From contig CP120455.1 of assembly GCA_034226945.1 (NCBI GenBank), forward strand, positions 496,001 through 560,000: a stretch of 64,000 nt of DNA. Direction: 5' to 3'. Made by a program: the position numbers and the translations under genes. The DNA is from Picochlorum sp. SENEW3. Its lineage: Eukaryota. The notes beneath the pieces were generated by a model. That model saw nothing but the letters and a program-made list of their open reading frames with translations. It was not told where the DNA came from and made no database searches. Shown here piece by piece: positions 54,993 through 64,000 of the stretch. The stretch's first letter is position 1. Each line of letters begins with the position of its first letter.

Positions 54993-55688
54993 ATGGATGA
55001 TACGAAACTATTCAGCTATCACGACCTTGTCATTCGAGCGTGCGATGTAGAATGCCTGCAACCAGGGCAATGGCTGAATGATCAGTGCATAGAACTCTAC
55101 CTCTTGTATTTGCAACATGAGGTGCATGCCCCTCCAGATATCCTCTTCGTGCCTCCTTCGACGACATTTCTCGTACTTCATGGAGGACAAGAAGTGGCCG
55201 CAAGCATCATGGACTCGATGGATGTATCCTCCAGATCAACCATATTTTTTGCCATAAACAACAGTACCAACATGGAGGTTGCCATGGAGGGCACCCATTG
55301 GTCAGCCATGGTCGTCGATCGCCGTACCCAAACCTGTACGCACTATGACAGTATTCCAGGAATGAATGCTCGTATAGCGATGCGCTTGAAAGATATTATT
55401 GCGCACGTCATGGGCATGCGCATCAGCTCTGTGAACGAGTGTACTGCACAACAAGGCAACTCGTATGATTGTGGATTATTCTGTTTAGCAACTGCTGCAA
55501 GGCTCGTATCAGAGAACATGCCATCATCCTTGGTAGGAGCCAATCAGGACGACGCAGATACCAGTGCGCTGCTCTTGCAGCATTCGGCAGTCACCAGTAG
55601 GTTTCAAGATTTGAACAGTCGCATGATGCTCGACTTTCGGCAGAAACTGGCAGATTGGGTCCATTCCCACATCCCTCCTACTCATTAA
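54993..55688 (+). CDS. SENP8: NEDD8-specific protease SENP8/DEN1 (Ulp1 peptidase C48)
   Basis: LFSYHD, WLNDQCIE, AINN, GTHWS, HYDS, QQGNSYDCGLFC catalytic His-Asp-Cys. Confidence 0.9.
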   Translation: MDDTKLFSYHDLVIRACDVECLQPGQWLNDQCIELYLLYLQHEVHAPPDILFVPPSTTFLVLHGGQEVAASIMDSMDVSSRSTIFFAINNSTNMEVAMEGTHWSAMVVDRRTQTCTHYDSIPGMNARIAMRLKDIIAHVMGMRISSVNECTAQQGNSYDCGLFCLATAARLVSENMPSSLVGANQDDADTSALLLQHSAVTSRFQDLNSRMMLDFRQKLADWVHSHIPPTH

Positions 55689-55767: not shown

Positions 55768-57732
55768 ATGCAAGCGGTCATACATCTTTTCCAAGGGCCT
55801 GCGTCCATATTTGGAACAGCGCTGTTAGGATTATGTGTATTATGTGCTTTATTGATGAATGAATTGACAAAAAAGAAGAAAGGAACGGTGTCAGTGGCTC
55901 TTCAAGCCAAGGAGGTTGAGGCACAGGAAGAAGAAGAAGACGGAAGGGATCAGTGTACGCTCGTGTTTGGAACGCAGACTGGTACGGCTGAGAAATTTGC
56001 AAAGACTCTTAAATCTCAATTAGAGAGTGCGTATGGGTCGACGACGGCGTTTCATGTGGTTGATGCGGAGCAGTATAAAGCTCAGGAGAGGCTGAGTAAG
56101 GAGACGCTGGTGATTTTTCTGGTAGCGACGTATGGCGATGGGGAGCCGACGGATAATGCTGTGGAGTTACATGATTACCTGGTGGAAGAGTCTGGTAAGG
56201 TGGATTATGCAGAGCTTCCGTTGGATGGTGTGTCTTTTGCTGTGTTTGCCTTGGGAAACAGGCAGTATGAGCATTTTTGTTCCATGGGAAAGACTGTGCA
56301 CAAGTGCATGACAGAGTTGGGGGCGACACCATTGTTAGCCATGGGAACTGGAGATGATGATGATGATATTGATAGAGATTTTGATGAGTGGTCTGCCAAG
56401 TTTTTTGAGGCATTGAAGGATTCAGAGTTGTTTGAGGCAGGGGTGACGGCACAGGTGACAACAGAGTCGGTTCCTGCGTATTCTATACAGAAGATTATGG
56501 ATGCGCCGGCGTCTTCTGTGAATAAAATTATAAATGGACGGGGAGATAATGTGCATTCGCCGTATTTGGCAGAGGTGACGTGTGTCAAAGAGTTGCATGG
56601 TGATGCATCAGATAGGTCTTGTGTACACGTGGAGGTTGATATATCTGGATCACAAACTGGATATGAGGCTGGCGATCATATTGGCGTGTATCCTGAAAAT
56701 TCAAAAGATGTTGTGAAGAAAGCTGCCGAGTTGTTGGGGAAGCCTCTCGATTTCTGTTTCAGTATGACCAAGGATGATAGATTTGAGGATTTGGGAGAGG
56801 TCTTCCTTCCAGGTGCCATGACCTTAGAGTTTGCATTGACTCATTTTGCCGATCTCTTGTCGTCTCCGAGTAAAGCTGCTTTAAAGATGTTGTCTGCGTT
56901 TGCGACGGATGCAAAGGAGCGGGAGCGGCTGGTGACGCTCTGTAGTGTGGATGGCGTGGCAGAATATGATGCATATGTGCATGTGCCAAAGAGGAGCCTT
57001 TTGGAGGTGTTGGAGGACTTTCCTTCCGCGAAGCCGACGATTGGTGCCTTCTTTGGCTCAATATCTCCTCGATTGCAGCCCAGGTATTACTCGATATCGT
57101 CTTCGCCAAAAGTGCATCCAACGTCAGTGCACATTACATGTGCTGTAGTTAGGGACCTCATGCCTACTGGAAGGGTTCACAATGGTGTCGCATCGACGTG
57201 GCTTGCACGTGTACGGGTGGGACAGAAGATTCCAGTGTTTTTGAGGAGTTCTTCCTTCAAATTACCTCAGAATAGGAATGCGCCCGTGATCATGGTTGGT
57301 CCGGGGACAGGTTTTGCTCCATTTAGAGGATTTATTCAGGATAGACGAGCAGATTCTACCTCAGCAGAGATGTTGTTGTACTTTGGGTGTCGGCATAGAG
57401 ACCATGATTTCATCTATGAAGAAGAGATGAAATCAGCTGTAGAAGATGGGACACTATCAAAGCTGGAATTAGCATTTAGTAGGGAGGGAAAAGCCAAGAA
57501 TTATGTGCAGCACCATATTGAAAAGGATGGAAGTCATCTGTGGTCACTGTTGAGCAATAAAAAGAACCCTGGGTACTTGTATATTTGCGGTGATGGAAAG
57601 CATATGGCAAAGGATGTGAATCGTGTGCTTCATCATATTGTGGAGAAGGAAGAAGGGTGCTCTGGAAATCAGGCGGAGGCGATTGTGAAAAAGATGGCCG
57701 ATCAGGGTCGGTATCTCAAGGACGTCTGGTGA
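55768..57732 (+). CDS. CPR: NADPH-cytochrome P450 reductase
   Basis: N-terminal TM, FGTQTGTAE, ATYGDGEPTDNA, LGNRQYEHF, LQPRYYSISSSP, GPGTGFAPFRGF, YFGCR, YICGD, RYLKDVW. Confidence 0.97.
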   Translation: MQAVIHLFQGPASIFGTALLGLCVLCALLMNELTKKKKGTVSVALQAKEVEAQEEEEDGRDQCTLVFGTQTGTAEKFAKTLKSQLESAYGSTTAFHVVDAEQYKAQERLSKETLVIFLVATYGDGEPTDNAVELHDYLVEESGKVDYAELPLDGVSFAVFALGNRQYEHFCSMGKTVHKCMTELGATPLLAMGTGDDDDDIDRDFDEWSAKFFEALKDSELFEAGVTAQVTTESVPAYSIQKIMDAPASSVNKIINGRGDNVHSPYLAEVTCVKELHGDASDRSCVHVEVDISGSQTGYEAGDHIGVYPENSKDVVKKAAELLGKPLDFCFSMTKDDRFEDLGEVFLPGAMTLEFALTHFADLLSSPSKAALKMLSAFATDAKERERLVTLCSVDGVAEYDAYVHVPKRSLLEVLEDFPSAKPTIGAFFGSISPRLQPRYYSISSSPKVHPTSVHITCAVVRDLMPTGRVHNGVASTWLARVRVGQKIPVFLRSSSFKLPQNRNAPVIMVGPGTGFAPFRGFIQDRRADSTSAEMLLYFGCRHRDHDFIYEEEMKSAVEDGTLSKLELAFSREGKAKNYVQHHIEKDGSHLWSLLSNKKNPGYLYICGDGKHMAKDVNRVLHHIVEKEEGCSGNQAEAIVKKMADQGRYLKDVW

Positions 57733-57852: not shown

Positions 57853-58456
57853 TTATTCTTCCTCGTCGTCGCTATCATCCTGCGGCACACACTCTACACT
57901 AACATCCCACCTGCTGCCAGGAGCGCTAGAGGCCACATATTTGACAAATCTCATGAGTCCTTCATCACGCAAAACAATGCTGATGGCGTTAAAGGCTGCA
58001 GAGATATTCAGAACGCCAGACTCGTCATCCTGTGCTTGTCGATACACTTCTGCTGGGCCATCCTCTTCTTCATCTGCAAGCAGATATGCTTCAAACCCGC
58101 CGCACTCTCCATCAGCCCAGGACGATTCGTCCATGGATGCTTCATCAACAAAGGTCAACACAACATCGAGACGAGGATCTTTGGTCAAGATACCATAATG
58201 CGCGACTGTATAATCTAATCCTGGTCGAAATCGTCGTATTTCTCTACGGTTCACCCCATCCATGGTCAATGTAGTGAAGCTGCGGATCAGGTTGGCAAAC
58301 GGAACACTACATATAACCTTATCACAGAGCTCTCTCATTGTACTTCCTAACCGCCTATGCGTGGATTCCTGTGTTGATGAATCCCCAGTGAACTCTAGGT
58401 AACGTTGAGGTATGGAAGAGACGCTAAATAAGGCCCCAATCCCAACCCCTTCGTAC
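57853..58456 (-). CDS. OGFOD1: C-terminal (Ofd1_CTDD-like) part of prolyl 3-hydroxylase OGFOD1/Tpa1; catalytic N-terminal domain not found in window (truncated or distant exon)
   Basis: QRYL, EIRRFRPGLDYTVA, GGFEAYL, AEVY, NAISIVLRDEGLMRFVKYVASSAPGSRWD; frame open up to a possible acceptor ttttcacag at 58457. Confidence 0.75.
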
Positions 58457-58518
58457 CTGTGAAAATAACTTATATTGTCGCTTTAAATATTGGTTTGAGT
58501 TGAAGAGTTTTAAAATTA

Positions 58519-58661
58519 ATGCAAAGCGCAGTGAGAGGGTCGGCCCTTATCAGATGTTCTGGTTTGAAAAGCCTCCCTGCAGGGACCAGCTGGTGGCCCT
58601 CCGGCGCACAGAGAGGCATCGTATTCCTTATCGTAGTACTTCAGGGTGTGATAGGTATATT

Positions 58662-58701
<40 letters not shown>

Positions 58702-59058
58702 AATACATCGTTGGCTGCAATGAGTCTCATATCTCGAGCCTATCTAAGGTCTTGGAAATTTCGTCGTCAAACCAGCATTCACAGTCTAGACAATTTAATT
58801 CATCCCATTCGGAATAAAAAGTTCTCATGGAAGGAGATATTCGATAATTTAACGAGCACAGGTCACAAGTATTGCACCCTTTACCGAGACAATTGGTCAT
58901 GCTCAGGAACTGACTACATGAAGGTGTTAAACGCAACAAAGAAATACAACAGTCAAAAAAGAGTACAGCATCTACCAAGAAATTCCTATATTTTTGCTGA
59001 GGGAAATTCGTTACTGGCCCAACTGATCTTCACATTGATCTGTGAGAGCAGAGGCTGA
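58519..59058 (+). pseudogene. Probable gene fragment: type II membrane anchor + GDS/GNS (SGNH/PC-esterase-like) motif, ending just after the motif
   Basis: TM GIVFLIVVLQGVIGIFIY; YIFAEGNSLLAQLIFTLICE then stop; contains a microsatellite. Confidence 0.35.
58655..58700. repeat. Compound (TA)n(GA)n microsatellite
   Basis: tatatttatatatatatatatatatatagagagagagagagagag. Confidence 0.9.
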
Positions 59059-59715
59059 TGGACAGGTCTGTGGAGATGAGTGTGAGCCAGCATGGTTGAC
59101 TTTTCTGCTCTGGGTGATGTATCAGCTGAGGTGTTGAGCATGCATTGTTGTTAGCATGGATTTTTCTCGTGATTATGAAGCGTAGCGTTGCATTCAAGAA
59201 AGAAGAATTCTAAATAAAGAGACGCTCATGTGGCGTACATCATTGTTCTATGGCGTTGCACATGCATTGGCACATGCATGTTGTTGCATCTATAGCGGTC
59301 TCCTGTTTGACCGCTACGGTATGGTTGCCAACTATGAGTGATCTCTCATTACTTTACCCGATGTTTATACCTGGAATGTAAATATGAGTAGCGTCAAAGC
59401 TCGATAATGTACCCCATGTTTCCTCTCTTCTCTGTTGTGCTGGGGAAACGTGTCAATCAGAGCAAGGCATCTGCAAACTTTCTAATAATTCTTCTAGCCT
59501 CGCTTATGGCATATTTGTCAGCACAGATTAATTTTATGTATTTAGGAAGACTGAAACAATAAATAGAACATACCTTTTGACGACGAATGTGGCATGTTGG
59601 TTCTGAGGAACTGTGGTCAAAGTTGAGTGAAAATTTTGGAAACTTTTGAGCGAGACTGACCGCATTGAATTGAAAATATATAATAGCGCTGTTTTCTTCT
59701 TGGAGAATAGTACAT

Positions 59716-60918
59716 TTATTGGCCTCTTGATGAGCATGCGTCCTGAATGATGGCCAGGCCCTGTTCTGCAGGTTCTTGCAGGTCTGGATTACTGCAGTAG
59801 AGAGTCCATGCAGGAGATTCATTCCCATGAGATTCGCCGCAATGTGTCATAATAATGACGTTGGAGTGACAGAGATCAGTTTGCTGCATGGCTGATGCAA
59901 TCCTCTCCTCAGGAGTGCTGGCCTGGGTACCGTCCTCAACAGAACAACAAGGTGATACAGCGTTGTAGTGACACAGCATGGTCGACACTGAATGTCGTTG
60001 GGCGTCTGCTACTTGCTTCATGGTATGATAGGATGCGTTTGACGACATGACAAGGGTAGAGTGAGCTTTGCGGAGACCTTGGATTGGACGTGGCCATGGT
60101 GTGTTGTCCTGTGGTGATGCCATGGCTTGACTCAGCAGTTTGGACAAGTTCACCTTGGATATGTGCTTGTCTGGGCTGTATGATCGATGGAGTGGATTTT
60201 GAGATGACTTATAGGTGTATGGAACGACCACGGATCGAGGGAATTGGCGTATGGAGTGCAACAGCACAGAGTGGAGCTCATCAGTAACGGGAATGTGAGC
60301 TCCACCCTTCCTGTGTGACACCTTATCGTGCTGGATCAGAATGAGAGCCTTGTCCGATGAGAGCACAAGATGGTTCTGACCTGGAGATTCCTTGTCAACA
60401 CTATCAATGATGGACATTGTGGCCCAATCACCTCGTAGCGGTGGCTGCATGGTGTACAAACACAGGGCGAACCATTGCCAGTACTCGGTGGTGTTTGCTG
60501 GGTCGCTGTCGATCCTGCGTTTGATGGCATCCCTGCGACAGCATATCTCTTGGAATGTTTTGAAGGCTTTGCCTTGGATGTTGTGGGCTGTTTCCTGGGT
60601 GGCTTGGATGCGTAACTCGTTGGCTTCCTGTCTCCACTTGTCTGTGGTGGGGTGATGGAGTCCAAGCTCCTTTCTCAGGACGGAAACCACGGGAAGCATC
60701 ATGGACGACAAGACAGATATATTGGTATACGTTTGTTTCATGTAGCGGTATATATCTTCGACCTTGGGTATGAGCCACAAGGAGTATTGTTGGACCTTGG
60801 CAGCATTAATCTTGGACCGTTTCTTGAGGGCATGCATGACTCTGTAGAGCGTTTCCAATTTGGTTCTGTACGATCGCACATCCCAAGGATTGTCGACATA
60901 AAGTTGTGTTGTTCTCAT
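59716..60918 (-). CDS. Tyrosine recombinase/integrase, intronless, resembling virophage/Polinton-like-virus-type YR
   Basis: Catalytic residues in correct order and spacing: LCLYTMQPPL-R162-GDW, HD-K199-VSHRKG, Q280-GL-R283-KAHST, VADAQR-H309-S, MLCH-Y318; ~140-aa helical N-terminal core-binding region. Confidence 0.85.
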   Translation of the reverse strand: MRTTQLYVDNPWDVRSYRTKLETLYRVMHALKKRSKINAAKVQQYSLWLIPKVEDIYRYMKQTYTNISVLSSMMLPVVSVLRKELGLHHPTTDKWRQEANELRIQATQETAHNIQGKAFKTFQEICCRRDAIKRRIDSDPANTTEYWQWFALCLYTMQPPLRGDWATMSIIDSVDKESPGQNHLVLSSDKALILIQHDKVSHRKGGAHIPVTDELHSVLLHSIRQFPRSVVVPYTYKSSQNPLHRSYSPDKHISKVNLSKLLSQAMASPQDNTPWPRPIQGLRKAHSTLVMSSNASYHTMKQVADAQRHSVSTMLCHYNAVSPCCSVEDGTQASTPEERIASAMQQTDLCHSNVIIMTHCGESHGNESPAWTLYCSNPDLQEPAEQGLAIIQDACSSRGQ

Positions 60919-61036
60919 ACATAGGGGAAGAGATAAAAATTTTGGAAATTTTACGCACGGGATAACTCAATTGACGGTTCATGTTTGGCCAGGCTTCCTT
61001 GGTTGCAGTTGGGAGGAATACCGTTGTATTTGTCAA

Positions 61037-61066
61037 AGTAACGTTAGAGAGGCCACTAACGTTACT
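61037..61066. repeat. Perfect 11-bp inverted repeat with 8-bp asymmetric spacer (loxP/dif-like geometry), candidate recombination site
   Basis: AGTAACGTTAG-AGAGGCCA-CTAACGTTACT, ~120 bp upstream of the YR start codon. Confidence 0.7.
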
Positions 61067-61146
61067 ATGTCGACCTTGAGTGGTGACTATCAGTTATCCA
61101 GTGAAGAGGCATGGAAGTATGTTGTCCAAAAAGTCTCAAGTACTAT

Positions 61147-61400
61147 TGTGGAACACCGGAACAGTAGTGGAACAGTTGTGGAACAGTTGTGGAACAGTTG
61201 TATATTTCCCCCTTGGTCTTCAAGTTTCTTTTTTACGTGTAAGCGAGGCATCTATAGGGTATAATTGAAAGAATGTCATAAATGGAACAGTGGAACAGTT
61301 GTTTTCAGGGTTTTTTGCCTATGGGCTTGAGTCATGCAAGACATCCAAAATCTCCCAGAACAAAAAAGTTTGAGAGGTGTTCCACTGTTCCGCTGTTCCA
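61147..61400. repeat. Iteron-like module A: GGAACA x7 forward, TGTTCC x3 reverse
   Basis: GGAACA at 61150, 61158, 61169, 61180, 61191, 61284, 61292; TGTTCC at 61378, 61386, 61394; 80-bp spacer between the inverted clusters. Confidence 0.9.
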
Positions 61401-61874
61401 CCCCGGTTGCCAACCACCCTGAGGTGTGCAAGTAGTCTACCGCTATTAGCCCTTGGTGGATATCTTTTTACAAGTTGAATGCTTTCAATAGTACTCAATG
61501 ACCACTTAATAATCCATTTCCTCTCGAGCGACAGTCGGTGTAGGAAAAAGCATACGAGTGGTGTAACGGTACCGTTGGCGGCTGATCTGCGTACTGCCAA
61601 GTAGAAGTATCACTGGGCCTCGATCTTTATATTCTAAGCATATCACATATATTTACGTGCTTTGCCATAGGGTGATGGCTGCTGGCTGCATATGGAGGTA
61701 ACAAAAAGGCCGACCACAATGGCGTTGACCAGCAACAACGGCAGAGTTCAACTTGATGATATTTCCTGCAGAGGACTGAAGCTCCGTGAAAAGCGGTTTC
61801 AAGGGTTCAATTTCATCATCATAAAACTATCAATAGCGCGTCGGCTATCAGAAACATCGCCGCAGAGGCACAAC

Positions 61875-62213
61875 GTAACTAAAGTAACTAAAGTAACTCT
61901 GTTCTTCTACTGCCTGTTTCCCTGTTGACTGAGGCATGTGGTAGCAACATGTTTCTGAGCTCTAGTCCTGTAGAGTTACTTTAGTTACTTTGTTTTAGAG
62001 TTCAGTAGAAAATGATTGAAAAACATGTTGGACTGTAGTTTCGGACACCCATACCAGAGGCCAGTCACAGACAATGCAAAAACAAAGTAACTGAAGTAAC
62101 TAAAGTAACTCTGCATCATTGGAGTGTAAGCCATCGCATTCCAGTAAATATATGGACTCGAAGACAAAACTTGAAGATATTCGAAGTAACCCCTAAAGTA
62201 ACTTCAAGTAACT
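61875..62213. repeat. Iteron-like module B: GTAAC(T) x9 forward, AGTTAC x2 reverse, with a 20-bp perfect inverted repeat
   Basis: GTAAC at 61875, 61884, 61893, 62087, 62096, 62105, 62186, 62198, 62208; AGTTAC at 61974, 61983; AAAGTAACTAAAGTAACTCT (61881-61900) pairs with 61972-61991. Confidence 0.9.
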
Positions 62214-62414
62214 GCGTCATTGACAGTCCAATATATATCAAACATGCCCATGTTCATGCATCTTTTGGCAGACTTGGATGCATGCATGGACTGTTGAATC
62301 AGTCCAGCATTTTTTGAAACAAGCACGATTGATATTCCGAGTATATGGATATATAGGCTTTGGGAGATGTATGCCAGTATATTGCCATATGGTTCCTTCA
62401 TGTTTTTGTCAAGT

Positions 62415-62804
62415 AGTAGAAATTTGGTGGAATCAGTAAAAGTGGTAAGAGAGTTGATGTGATAGCTGGGCACTTCTACCATTTTTACCATTTCTACCAG
62501 TTTTTTTTCAAAAAGTTTTTTTTTCAGGGATATATATGTTTATATATAACATATAAATGTAGGGACTTTTCCCCCCAAAAGTGGTAAAAGTGGTAGGACT
62601 GAGGCTAACAGGTCACAACAACTGGAACAGCCTGCCTGACACATGTATGTTGCTGGAGTGATAGTTCGGCGATCCATTTTCAAATCTGGTAGCACTCTCA
62701 AAGGAAAAGTCTTTGAAAATTTGATAGAATGCATTGGGTGGCACTCGACTCGAACAGCACATAAAAATCATCCATACCAACAAAATGGTAGGCAAAAGTG
62801 GTAG
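62415..62804. repeat. Iteron-like module C: TACCA x3 facing TGGTA x2 across an AT-rich spacer, plus outlying TGGTA copies
   Basis: TACCA at 62477, 62486, 62495; TGGTA at 62582, 62591, also 62443, 62687, 62786, 62799; 82-bp spacer with T tracts and TATATGTT/AACATATA hairpin. Confidence 0.88.
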
Positions 62805-62900
62805 TCAAATATGAGGATGCATGACACATAATGCCTAGGTTGTGGGTGCCCCTTTTCATCTCCGCACATGACAGTGCTTATATCGTAAACTTTGGCTACT

Positions 62901-64000
62901 TTACACATACCATATAGAATCTTTCATAGCTTTCGTCTTGGCTGCTTGTTGTTGTCTGGCCTTGGATGCTTTGATGTGACTACTACCGTTGTTCCAGGTT
63001 GGCTTGACAGGGCCTGTAGATCGAGCACGCTTTCTCTTCGTAGCGTTAGACATATTCTCGTGTTTTCTTGGCGTTAGCATTGGTTGAAACACGTGTACAT
63101 GCTCAGAGTGCACTGTCCTCCACACCTGATGGCCAACTCCACTCTCAAACCATTCAACCAAGGCATCTGCATGATATATGATGCAATTGTATTGTCAATT
63201 GATGTATTGATGTGGTCCATTACTGTTCATGTAGTCTATTTAATATGATATCACGCACCAGATACACGGAACCCCAGTTGTCTGTACGTTTCCAAGTGAT
63301 TGTACTGATGATCCTGCAATGCTACTGCTACATGTGCAATCTCACATGGGACCAAACAGAGGAAAGGGTCATCGCGATGTACCAGTGACCTCCATTCGCC
63401 ATAATGTTGTTTCGTCGCGTGTTCGCTGTCATTGTTGTATTTGAGACTCGCAGCAGCAATGGAAATCTTAGCTGCTGAATTCCCATTCTCAGCTCCTCCT
63501 CCTGCATCATCTGCATTCCACCCCATCAACGAGACTTCCCCATCATCTGTGGCCCCTTCAATATCTAGAATGGAATCTTGGGAATCTTCTACCGCCAGTG
63601 CAAGGCTAGATGGAGCCAAGGATGATGATGGTGGTGGCACTTTCTTGTCTTCTCCAACTATTTGCACATCCAATTCAGCTGCATCAGATGCAACGTGCTC
63701 CTCTACCGTTGTGCCATTTCCATCCGTAGCGTCCTTGTCGACCTGATCACAAACCTGATTGGTTGGTACATCGGTATCGTCCTTGTCCGCAAGAACGTCA
63801 TTCAACACATCACTGAGGTGTGCTTGAAAAGACTCCTTCAAACCTGGGGAGCCCACAATCTCCACAACCTCTGCAGCAAAGAAAACTCTTTCAGATGCAT
63901 CCATGACAAGTATCACAATGCACCAAAAGGCACGCACCATGCACTTGACCGCTCCTGTTCTGTCTGAGAGCTTTGACCAACAGCACATACTGCCCACCTT
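62901..64000 (-). CDS. Spliced hypothetical gene (5' end outside window), weak resemblance to Crypton/NDC10-II tyrosine-recombinase region; introns 63871-63937 and 63167-63258
   Basis: gtgcgt...tgcag introns restore one frame (..GQVH|EVVEIV...FRVS|DALVEWF..); motif HATKQHYGEWRSLVHRDDPFLC resembles Crypton KTNQ..RH.D..LC. Confidence 0.45.

Follow-up and report, generated by a model that had tools for sequence, protein, structure and literature searches.

A virophage/PLV-type tyrosine recombinase encoded in a repeated and probably mobile cassette of Picochlorum sp. SENEW3

Tyrosine recombinases of solved structure, among them Cre, XerA, XerH, lambda Int and Tn1549 Int, have a two-domain architecture that is also found in the recombinase (YR) of Picochlorum described here. 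A spacing of 9 residues between the catalytic histidine and tyrosine is typical of this group in the numbering of Cre and XerD, and the loxP site recognised by Cre is laid out as inverted arms around an 8-bp spacer. Eukaryotic genomes harbour mobile elements of a related kind. Cryptons are described as multi-copy elements without long terminal repeats in which the YR is the sole recognisable enzyme, and breakpoints at a short site matching the element are described for them, as for CryptonF-1_cRei of Chlamydomonas (PMC9977147, PMC3212892). Activity is reported for the Chlamydomonas Cryptons, which give rise to rearrangements whose breakpoints have target sites (PMC9977147). Crypton YRs have also been domesticated before, and the domesticated genes are reported to have lost catalytic residues (PMC3212892). 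Virus-derived YRs are described from the nuclear genomes of protists and green algae in the endogenous mavirus-like elements and in the polinton-like viruses (PLVs) of Tetraselmis (PMC8547959; bioRxiv 10.1101/2025.10.09.676808). These elements measure 15-30 kb and have capsid and replication modules, whereas only a recombinase and a companion gene are seen at the locus considered here.

In the current analysis a stretch of 64,000 nucleotides of SENEW3 DNA, referred to as the window, has been found to encode a YR within a cassette that is probably Crypton-like and mobile, with a recombinase of virophage/PLV type. We place the probability of this reading at about 0.6, its mobility being inferred. 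The features of the region are the following.

57853..58407, minus strand: truncated duplicate of a host prolyl hydroxylase gene of OGFOD1/Tpa1 type, last 184 aa only
58408..59044, unstranded: junction segment with a (TA)n(GA)n run
59045..59715, unstranded: 3' flank common to other YR copies, with indels (RNA and contig alignments)
59716..60918, minus strand: YR ORF of 400 aa (uninterrupted ATG-to-stop frame, conserved residues, fold match)
60919..60962, minus strand: conserved 5' block, in gene sense GTGCGTAAAATTTCCAAAATTTTTATCTCTT..ATG, forming a leader of ~45 nt (alignment with copies L017 and L016)
61037..61066, unstranded: lox-like site AGTAACGTTAG - AGAGGCCA - CTAACGTTACT, perfect inverted arms of 11 bp on either side of an 8-bp spacer
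61148..61401, unstranded: iteron cluster A, units of GTGGAACAG type, of which 7 are direct and 3 inverted
61872..62213, unstranded: iteron cluster B, AAAGTAACT units in both orientations
62439..62803, unstranded: iteron cluster C, AAAGTGGTA units in both orientations
62904..64000, minus strand: companion gene, acidic product, at least 3 exons, running off the window end (RNA contig joints, paralogues)

On the minus strand the order of the cassette is thus companion gene, three iteron clusters, lox-like site, leader, YR and 3' flank. The seven YR loci in SENEW3, the companion gene, the lox-like site and the adjoining truncated duplicate of a host gene are points additional to the initial annotation of this DNA.

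The uninterrupted 400-aa frame which that annotation had reported is real; it has homologues (20 close, 182 in total), and comparison between copies, also proposed there, gives dN/dS of 0.17-0.30 for the 7 pairs, out of 10, that overlap sufficiently to be scored. The YR copies are under purifying selection. The public annotation starts at M28 and has 373 aa, its entry P0294 being 100% identical to 60837-59719. Five of the six canonical catalytic residues (R162, K199, R283, H309 and Y318) are present, as had been claimed. Across 40 aligned family sequences there is no variation at R162, K199, R228, R283, A304 and Y318, and at least 90% of the rows keep R308, H309 and S310. The histidine of the HxxR motif, found in the solved tyrosine recombinases, is replaced by Q or D in this family. 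The column three residues before R283 is occupied by Q280 in the window YR and mostly by D in distant relatives, and the replacement noted in the initial annotation is confirmed by a profile-to-PDB alignment (E 0.005) in which this column pairs with the H of ILRH in the integrase 3nkh, while R283, H309 and Y318 align to its R, H and Y.

The integrase fold which had been predicted is likewise recovered in an AF2 model of the YR (pLDDT 87.3). Structure comparison of the model reveals a two-domain Cre fold made up of a helical core-binding domain and a catalytic domain, with Z-scores of 15.3 to Tre/Cre (280 aligned residues, rmsd 5.4), 14.0 to XerA and 11.9 to lambda Int, at a sequence identity of 8-13% to the solved tyrosine recombinases; Foldseek matches the model to Cre with an E-value of 2.7e-5 and probability 1.0. 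Every one of the 34 top-ranking VIA rows is a tyrosine recombinase or a relative with the integrase fold; the title of one, 9rd5, reads only 'Phi3T SroF bound to DNA', and topoisomerase IB comes next. The R..K..R..H..Y spacing is as in the Cre-type recombinases, with H309 and Y318 separated by 9 residues. R228, an additional invariant residue, and a C-terminal domain of ~65 aa specific to the clade set the Picochlorum YR apart from the Cre-type enzymes. No Pfam family, Phage_integrase (PF00589) and the Crypton accessory domains GCR1_C and DUF3504 included, is assigned to the window protein at E-values up to 10, and none of 43 distant homologues matches any family at E up to 0.01; single-sequence searches of PHROG and PDB gave no useful match. 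RNA over the region is represented by metatranscriptome contigs of depth 2-6 and 91-97% identity, which lend weak support and may include DNA carry-over.

The YR is a tyrosine recombinase equipped for catalysis, from a family that lacks annotation and is common to virophages, polinton-like viruses and giant algal viruses. The motifs LYTxQPPxR, DKV, FPR, LR and MRHS..Y are common to the viral and the Picochlorum enzymes. Distant relatives are recovered with E-values of 1e-14 to 1e-4 in sequence search, and the A1 profile matches ORFs in all 12 IMG/VR loci with YR relatives (E 9e-35 to 9e-18). Capsid or ATPase genes share the contig with the YR relative in 5 of these 12 loci, namely Sputnik-type MCP or penton genes in L001, L003, L005 and L011 and an A32 ATPase in L003 and L006; one of the 12 is a giant-virus MAG contig. 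The best structure matches in BFVD are from Hokovirus, Harvfovirus, AaV, TetV-1, PoV and HaV-1, and relatives also occur in Preplasmiviricota clusters of the Atlas. The viral-type kinship suggested by the initial annotation is thereby upheld, whereas IMG/VR scans with the window YR, with the Picochlorum-clade alignment A3 and with the sister-clade alignment A2 (P0022-P0027) gave no close relatives. The family is tied by sequence to these viruses, and the difference from Crypton and DIRS YRs proposed in the initial annotation may hold.

In an unrooted tree that includes viral YRs, as had been proposed, the Picochlorum YRs group together with support 100; they sit on a long stem and are separate from the clade to which the 11 viral-contig ORFs belong. 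The viral YRs have a C-terminal tail which is lacking, and has been replaced, in the Picochlorum clade. The Picochlorum YRs also differ from the viral ones in lying in cellular DNA without capsid or replication genes, as seen in the 38 scanned of the 48 window ORFs. Horizontal acquisition and continued activity, both suggested in the initial annotation, are possible; the tree, being unrooted, gives no direction of transfer, and its immediate sister sequences are of uncertain origin. The gene is indeed a single ORF in an intron-containing genome, but as an argument for a foreign gene this is weak, because most of the neighbouring genes are also single ORFs.

The cassette is repeated in Picochlorum, with copies in differing flanks. 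SENEW3 has 7 YR loci (6 named entries and the window copy), 5 of which are on one 1.13-Mb contig, and P. soloecismus and P. renovo have two entries each. Single positions inside the YR gene are covered by 12-16 distinct contigs as against 1 in the flank; contig-derived depth does not equal copy number, and such ratios serve as hints only. Self-BLAST of 58300-63300 against the 64-kb window reveals no second copy of the cassette. Different flanks are seen in L016, L017 and the X5 contig. L016 has a near-identical YR copy (96-97%) in an unrelated flank, with ordinary host genes, a Na+/H+ exchanger among them, ~630 bp away. L017, identified in a scan of genome contigs, is one 1.8-kb contig filed under a bacterial MAG; its 5' ORF had been considered protease-like, a reading that was dropped because Pfam gave no match.

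The companion gene is unannotated and adjoins the YR in all 3 loci in which the neighbour is known. Paralogues of it adjoin other YR copies, and the repeated unit continues past 64000. RNA contigs, which cover it at strong depth, define GT-AG joints on the minus strand at 63166/63259 and 63870/63938. Its product appears to be largely disordered, in a shallow alignment of 5 rows, and has no Pfam family and no Atlas neighbour. The companion gene and the iteron arrays distinguish the cassette from Cryptons.

These properties could also be those of a domesticated, immobile two-gene host module, in which a recombinase of old viral or transposon origin has been multiplied a few times, together with its companion, by ordinary segmental duplication. 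The two genes would now serve the host, for instance in programmed rearrangement, in defence or by binding DNA at the iterons. Purifying selection on the YR, the age of the cassette paralogues (YR identity of 80% and 64%, companion identity of 44%), the retention of both genes together in 3 of 3 loci, the introns and strong RNA depth of the companion and the long stem of a clade with a replaced viral tail would all agree with it, and the domesticated Crypton YRs provide precedents (PMC3212892). We consider it unlikely, as 3 of the 7 SENEW3 loci are truncated or frameshifted, L014 is a 5'-truncated fusion copy and near-identical copies, as in L016, occur in unrelated flanks; the YR moreover keeps its five catalytic residues, in contrast to what is reported for the domesticated Crypton genes (PMC3212892).

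The edges of the cassette vary among the copies. The conserved 5' block (60919..60962) is common to a 62%-identical YR copy, and other copies switch flank at or inside it; L016 diverges at 60943 and the X5 contig at 60960, while another continues past 61156. The N-terminal extensions of P0003 and P0005 in the family alignment also bear on this block. In the 3' flank contig joints are found at 59272/59404 and 59466/59672, a loose end lies at 59045 in X2, X4 and X5, and a plus-strand polyadenylated RNA ends at 59398, as seen from an A-run followed by adapter. The segment ~58404-58871 has zero depth in X5 and almost none in X4, which is a hint only. A motif resembling the units of iteron cluster C sits left of 59045 in other YR copies; among clusters A, B and C self-BLAST of 58300-63300 detects no similarity beyond the iterons themselves. 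Crypton termini carry short direct repeats of 4-6 bp. The available Picochlorum copies, whose flanks are short, revealed no such repeats and no element ends, target-site repeats, empty sites or circle junctions; the sole observation that bears on termini is the coincidence of the 8-mer GTAACGTT with the OGFOD1 breakpoint, described below. A 17-nt direct repeat around the ORF, AAAATTTTGGAAAyTTT (59630 and 60936), was considered as an att pair, a reading set aside because L014 and L015 do not conserve its downstream copy. Scanning the region for Rfam families and tRNAs gave no tRNA and a lone miRNA-family match (E 0.78) far below threshold.

Alternatively, the YR could mark where the integrase gene lies at the end of a larger virus-derived island, be it an endogenous virophage, a PLV or another kind, the rest of which lies beyond 64000 or has decayed. 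The distant members of the family on virophage and PLV-like contigs, the extension of the repeated unit past 64000 and the iteron arrays, which could be viral non-coding DNA, fit such an island, and insertions of PLVs and virophages are described as normally carrying a YR or an rve integrase (PMC10120064). The initial annotation had found no capsid, packaging ATPase or polymerase gene nearby and had concluded that this is not a complete PLV; both statements stand for the window, which ends 3 kb upstream of the YR, as no viral hallmark gene occurs in the 38 scanned of its 48 ORFs of at least 150 aa. The GC content shows no shift across the region, the next gene rightward has spliceosomal introns and no viral match, the L016 copy is close to ordinary host genes and IMG/VR has no close relative, all of which make a viral island quite improbable. 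The absence of reverse transcriptase and RNase H from the same 38 ORFs, and from the stop-to-stop frames of 58300-59720, argues against a DIRS or Ngaro element. A dead relic or functionless chance ORF, for which only the want of Pfam, PHROG or PDB matches to the single sequence could be cited, is scarcely credible in view of the 182 homologues with conserved catalytic residues, the dN/dS values well below 1 and the confident integrase-fold model.

The reading of a Crypton-like, probably mobile cassette is consistent with its multi-copy occurrence and with the YR as the sole recognisable enzyme, with no reverse transcriptase or RNase H in the 38 scanned ORFs and no long terminal repeats in self-BLAST; it has also a candidate recombination site. 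The lox-like site, 119 bp upstream of the YR ATG, is of 30 bp and laid out like loxP. Perfect 11-8-11 inverted repeats occur twice in the 64 kb, this site included, as against 0.27 expected. The 8-mer GTAACGTT occurs 3 times (0.47 expected), two of them in the lox-like site. The units of iteron cluster B carry AAGTAAC, a word also present in the arm of the site, and 11 of its 12 occurrences in the window are within 61036-62206. The lox-like site is absent upstream of L016 and L017, which are both of the other copies with upstream DNA.

The third GTAACGTT ends 1 bp before the point (58407/8) at which the OGFOD1 duplicate is cut off, and the 8-mer thus coincides with the OGFOD1 breakpoint, in the manner of the Crypton breakpoints; the YR may have made this break. 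The partial duplicate is 99.5% identical and is cut directly after GTAACGTTG (58399-58407), at a junction spanned by a mismatch-free 184-nt contig. It had been considered as a gene interrupted by insertion and is now read as a truncated duplicate because a full-length copy exists. The sequence right of the break (AGGTATGGAAGAG..) has no resemblance to the spacer and right arm of the lox-like site, and for this reason the break may have come from an end-joining accident.

If the YR acts as its fold suggests, it would bind the GTAAC-type arms, cut at the border of arm and spacer and, like Cre, form a Holliday junction during strand exchange. The cassette would then integrate and be excised through a circle, as in the Crypton model. 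Occasional recombination with look-alike half-sites in host genes may also occur, and one such event at GGTAACGTTG inside OGFOD1 could have left the truncated duplicate beside the cassette.

More tentatively, the cassette may represent an undescribed class of eukaryotic mobile element that moves and reshuffles chromosomes by true site-specific recombination. Such a class would combine a Cre-like recombinase derived from virophages or PLVs with an obligate acidic companion and private iteron arrays around a lox-like core. A full-text search of the literature yielded no paper pairing Picochlorum with a tyrosine recombinase, and the words 'recombinase' and 'integrase' are absent from the main text of the SENEW3 genome paper.

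The YR family connects a repeat family that lives free in cells with the integrases found in virophages, PLVs and giant viruses, and it bears on the kinship between YR transposons such as Cryptons and viral integrases. The genomes of Picochlorum are described as repeat-poor and streamlined, yet with unexplained haplotype rearrangements (PMC11092101), for which a site-specific recombinase residing in the genome, together with its recognisable site, offers a testable cause. If the more tentative reading is true, the cassette would be an agent of haplotype-specific rearrangements in these diploid, streamlined genomes, which could include the truncated OGFOD1 duplicate and the repeat-rich, translocated chromosome arms reported for SENEW3. 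If active, the native Cre-like enzyme and its candidate 30-bp site would provide a genome-engineering tool for a fast-growing production alga.

The tyrosine recombinase (YR) gene found in the window forms part of a cassette that also includes an acidic companion gene, three iteron clusters, a lox-like site and a 3' flank. The most likely reading, given a probability of about 0.6, sees this unit as a Crypton-like mobile cassette whose recombinase, of the virophage/PLV type, recombines GTAAC-type sites.

Features of the cassette and of its left neighbour
57853-58407, minus strand: final part of a gene for an OGFOD1/Tpa1-type prolyl hydroxylase
59106-59398, plus strand: short RNA, convergent with the YR gene
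59716-60918, minus strand: YR gene, 400 aa
61037-61066: lox-like site, a perfect 11-8-11 inverted repeat, AGTAACGTTAG-AGAGGCCA-CTAACGTTACT
61148-61401: iteron cluster A, GTGGAACAG
61872-62213: iteron cluster B, AAAGTAACT
62439-62803: iteron cluster C, AAAGTGGTA
63998-62904, minus strand: companion gene, three exon pieces

The YR gene runs from ATG to stop without interruption and its region has a GC content of 0.44-0.46, which is no anomaly against 0.42-0.50 over the window. The protein alone matches no Pfam family at E-values up to 10 and has no match in a PDB sequence search; a PHROG match (E 0.47) was rejected as spurious. A word-indexed search has identified 20 close homologues with 54-93% identity, two of which are hypothetical proteins recorded under the name Picochlorum sp. 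SENEW3. When 1.84 billion representatives were searched exhaustively with HMMER, 182 proteins reached an E-value of 1e-3 or lower, among them 46 at or below 1e-10 and 13 at or below 1e-30. A set of 43 distant homologues gave no Pfam match at E-values up to 0.01, and the YR family is therefore unannotated.

In an alignment of 40 sequences R162, K199, R228, R283, A304 and Y318 are invariant, and R308, H309, S310, P159 and P160 are conserved in at least 90%. This alignment and the ORF call confirm the intact 400-aa frame and the residues R162, K199, R283, H309 and Y318 recognised in the initial annotation. The 40-sequence profile matched one PDB integrase, 3nkh (E 0.005), with LR(283) paired with ILRH, RH(309)S with GHS and Y318 with a tyrosine. 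The column of the HxxR histidine is occupied by D in the profile and by Q280 in the window protein, and the replacement of this histidine by Q280, proposed earlier, is thus borne out. A C-terminal tail is common to the distant relatives, in place of which the Picochlorum clade has its own domain of about 65 aa. This clade-specific domain (residues 335-400, 59716-59915) is modelled as two strands and a helix with pLDDT of 54-84.

The AlphaFold2 model generated from the alignment (pLDDT 87.3, pTM 0.73) has K199 in a turn joining two strands, and R283 and Y318 in helices. The integrase fold expected from the initial annotation is recovered by two methods. Cre holds the top rank in Foldseek (E 2.7e-5, probability 1.0, both domains covered), and VIA-align gives a Z-score of 15.3 with Tre/Cre (280 residues, rmsd 5.4), followed by XerA (14.0), Tn1549 Int (12.1) and lambda Int (11.9), with topoisomerase IB ranked only beneath the YRs. 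The Cre row with the best rmsd aligns Cre 41-328 with residues 13-322 of the model. If the last helix is ungapped, the ends of these ranges would place Y318 opposite Y324 of Cre, and H309 opposite W315.

Relatives of the YR are encoded in 12 viral loci of IMG/VR, and their ORFs score E-values of 9e-35 to 9e-18 with the family profile A1. These loci include Sputnik-type major or minor capsid genes (L001, L003, L005, L011), A32-type ATPases (L003, L006) and D5 or DUF5906 primase-helicases (L005, L006, L007, L010, L011, L012); L008 is a giant-virus MAG contig. Virophage and PLV insertions are described as usually carrying a YR or an rve integrase (PMC10120064, PMC8547959, bioRxiv 10.1101/2025.10.09.676808). 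The PLV/virophage-like contig L006, with a prim-pol and an A32 ATPase, has two integration enzymes, since the YR homologue directly adjoins an rve-chromodomain integrase (L006:9470-11814); the same two enzymes (YR and rve) have been reported in some Cafeteria EMALEs. The top structural matches in BFVD are from Hokovirus, Harvfovirus, Aureococcus anophagefferens virus, Tetraselmis virus 1, Pyramimonas orientalis virus and Heterosigma akashiwo virus, and a Qinghai Lake virophage protein is a lower-ranked match. ESM Atlas neighbours belong to viral clusters, mostly of Preplasmiviricota, in one of which 16% of the members carry PF00589.

An unrooted FastTree phylogeny (a fast method) of 159 rows, limited by catalytic-core coverage to 147 of 167 proteins, groups 17 Picochlorum-type rows into one clade with a support of 100. 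P0017, a close homologue outside the predefined group list, also falls in this clade. A larger clade of 30 rows (support 99) encloses it, the remaining rows being of unrecorded origin. The 11 viral-contig ORFs fall in a different clade (support 99), and the IMG/VR searches found nothing closely related to the Picochlorum clade or to its sister sequences. From the breadth of the family a viral origin of the Picochlorum YR is likely, though not proven. The viral-type YR of the initial annotation is largely supported by the viral-contig relatives and by the BFVD and Atlas matches; the lone gene has given way to a repeated cassette, and a close viral relative is missing from IMG/VR.

The companion gene, which lies right of the YR gene, has GT-AG introns in RNA contigs (63166/63259 and 63870/63938). 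Its acidic product has a few conserved blocks, with no Pfam family and no Atlas neighbour, and only a single homologue cluster was identified among proteins of 357-2000 aa, comprising PSENEW3_00001524, PSENEW3n2_00000867 and an unnamed 215-aa ENA fragment. PSENEW3_00001524 is separated by two tags from the YR PSENEW3_00001526, as is PSENEW3n2_00000867 from the YR n2_869, and tblastn places the homologue on the window with 44% identity. The companion is therefore beside a YR copy in all three known loci and the repeated unit therefore extends past the window end.

The two genes are separated by three clusters of different 9-11-bp iterons (61148-62803), arranged in sets of 2-5 tandem units, direct and inverted, about 75-90 bp apart. 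The motifs of clusters A and B exceed shuffles, and all three motifs are confined to this stretch. The lox-like site is situated 119 bp upstream of the YR ATG. The 64 kb contain only two perfect inverted repeats whose arms measure 11 bp and whose spacers measure 4-10 bp, against a mean of 0.27 in thirty Markov shuffles. Among the clusters only B shares AAGTAAC with the lox-like arm, and 11 of the 12 AAGTAAC words of the window lie at 61036-62206. Both other copies with known upstream DNA lack the lox-like site. The other perfect 11-bp inverted repeat (57405-57435, 9-bp spacer), inside a P450-reductase gene, is just left of bin 57468, where the summed contig depth of sequencing run X2 climbs about 3-5 fold; it may be the other end of a duplicated segment, or chance.

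The left neighbour encodes only the final 184 aa of OGFOD1, 99.5% identical to 552-aa proteins of Picochlorum strains, and the window lacks the first 367-368 codons altogether. A full-length copy and the 161-aa fragment are listed on NCBI contigs of identical length, and the OGFOD1 fragment is therefore a recent partial duplicate. Contigs of run X4 continue past 58407 with the letters expected of intact OGFOD1, and in X2 the junction is bridged by a 184-nt contig without mismatch. The 8-mer GTAACGTT is found at three places in the window, with 0.47 expected: two in the lox-like arms and one at 58399-58406, ending one base before the OGFOD1 break. By a rough estimate, the probability that this word would fall by chance only a few bases from any one breakpoint is ~1e-4. 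This position would place the break at an arm/spacer border, where a YR would cut. The far side of the break bears no resemblance to the lox-like spacer and right arm. The junction segment also contains a (TA)14(AG)9 microsatellite (58656-58701) and has no cover in X5 and near none in X4.

Five SENEW3 YR entries (n2_684, n2_836, n2_855, n2_869 and n2_873) are assigned by cluster look-ups to one 1.13-Mb contig, and PSENEW3_00001526 to a 1.56-Mb contig. The window copy corresponds to P0294 (373 aa, 100% identical to 60837-59719), and no second YR copy is present within the 64 kb. Two entries are listed for each of P. soloecismus and P. renovo, and the 90% cluster of the homologue P0001 has 40 members. 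Metagenome contigs provide a copy of 95% nucleotide identity (L013), one truncated 5' and fused to unrelated sequence (L014), an 80% copy (L015), the first 117 codons at 97% amino-acid identity with window homology ending 25 bp upstream of the ATG (L016), and a 62% copy with only 45 nt upstream of the ATG in common with the window (L017). In L016 an unannotated 599-aa ORF lies some 630 bp away from the YR copy, and a Na+/H+ exchanger gene is found on the same contig. L017, P0328 and P0333 are Picochlorum-type YRs on contigs deposited as bacterial MAGs (Myxococcales; 'bacterium'), which are probably algal contigs binned wrongly. Position 60178 is covered by 12 contigs in X2 and 16 in X4, and the flank at 57967 by one, these being contig data and not copy numbers. 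A contig of X5 departs from the window sequence at 60960, and X2, X4 and X5 all have contigs that depart from it at 59045, directly left of which a cluster-C-like motif is found in other copies (loose contig ends).

Three of the seven SENEW3-type loci are truncated or degraded (152 aa; 289 aa; an internal gap with a frame change). Nei-Gojobori dN/dS, suggested earlier as a check between copies, is 0.30, 0.24, 0.25 and 0.17 for the window against L013, L014, L015 and L016, and 0.22-0.26 among L013-L015, a range of 0.17-0.30 over the scored pairs; three pairs with too small an overlap were unscored. In X15, one oligo-dT metatranscriptome, three parts of the YR ORF are covered at depth 4-6, compared with ~8 for the neighbouring reductase gene and 82-184 for the companion gene. 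The RNA coverage sought for the YR thus exists in part, from contigs that are 91-97% identical and may reflect DNA carry-over. The short plus-strand RNA, with no convincing ORF, has a depth of 63 and ends in an A-run and adapter at 59398, 14-17 nt after TGTAA, a green-algal poly(A) signal. A domesticated two-gene module would be an alternative explanation of the locus, and we regard it as unlikely.

The window is ordinary algal nuclear DNA, in which 38 of the 48 ORFs of at least 150 aa were scanned and either fell into housekeeping families or remained without a match. Capsid, ATPase, polymerase and RT are all absent from these 38, in agreement with the earlier statement that no capsid, packaging ATPase or polymerase gene is visible near the YR. 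A larger provirus that continues beyond the window, with the locus as its edge, is a still less probable explanation than the domesticated module. The ORF 54993-55688 (+), 4 kb from the YR gene, has a Ulp1/C48 peptidase domain (E 4.9e-12). A C48 peptidase is described in some CryptonS elements (PMC3212892); this ORF may simply be a host SUMO protease.

A full-text literature search found no paper that combines Picochlorum with a tyrosine recombinase. The main text of the SENEW3 genome paper mentions neither a recombinase nor an integrase; it describes a low number of repeats, right arms of chr04 and chr06 that are rich in them, and a reciprocal translocation between these two chromosomes (PMC11092101). 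Cryptons are described as DNA transposons that have only a YR, lack long terminal repeats and end in direct repeats of 4-6 bp (PMC3212892). Those of Chlamydomonas are reported to be active, to insert at a short site that matches one terminus and to give rise to inversions and translocations whose breakpoints carry target sites (PMC9977147). The Picochlorum cassette, read as a mobile element, resembles them in its Crypton-like behaviour, but sequence ties its enzyme to the viral family, and the cassette additionally holds a companion gene, arrays of iterons and a complete lox-like site. The object is larger and more interesting than a lone YR gene.
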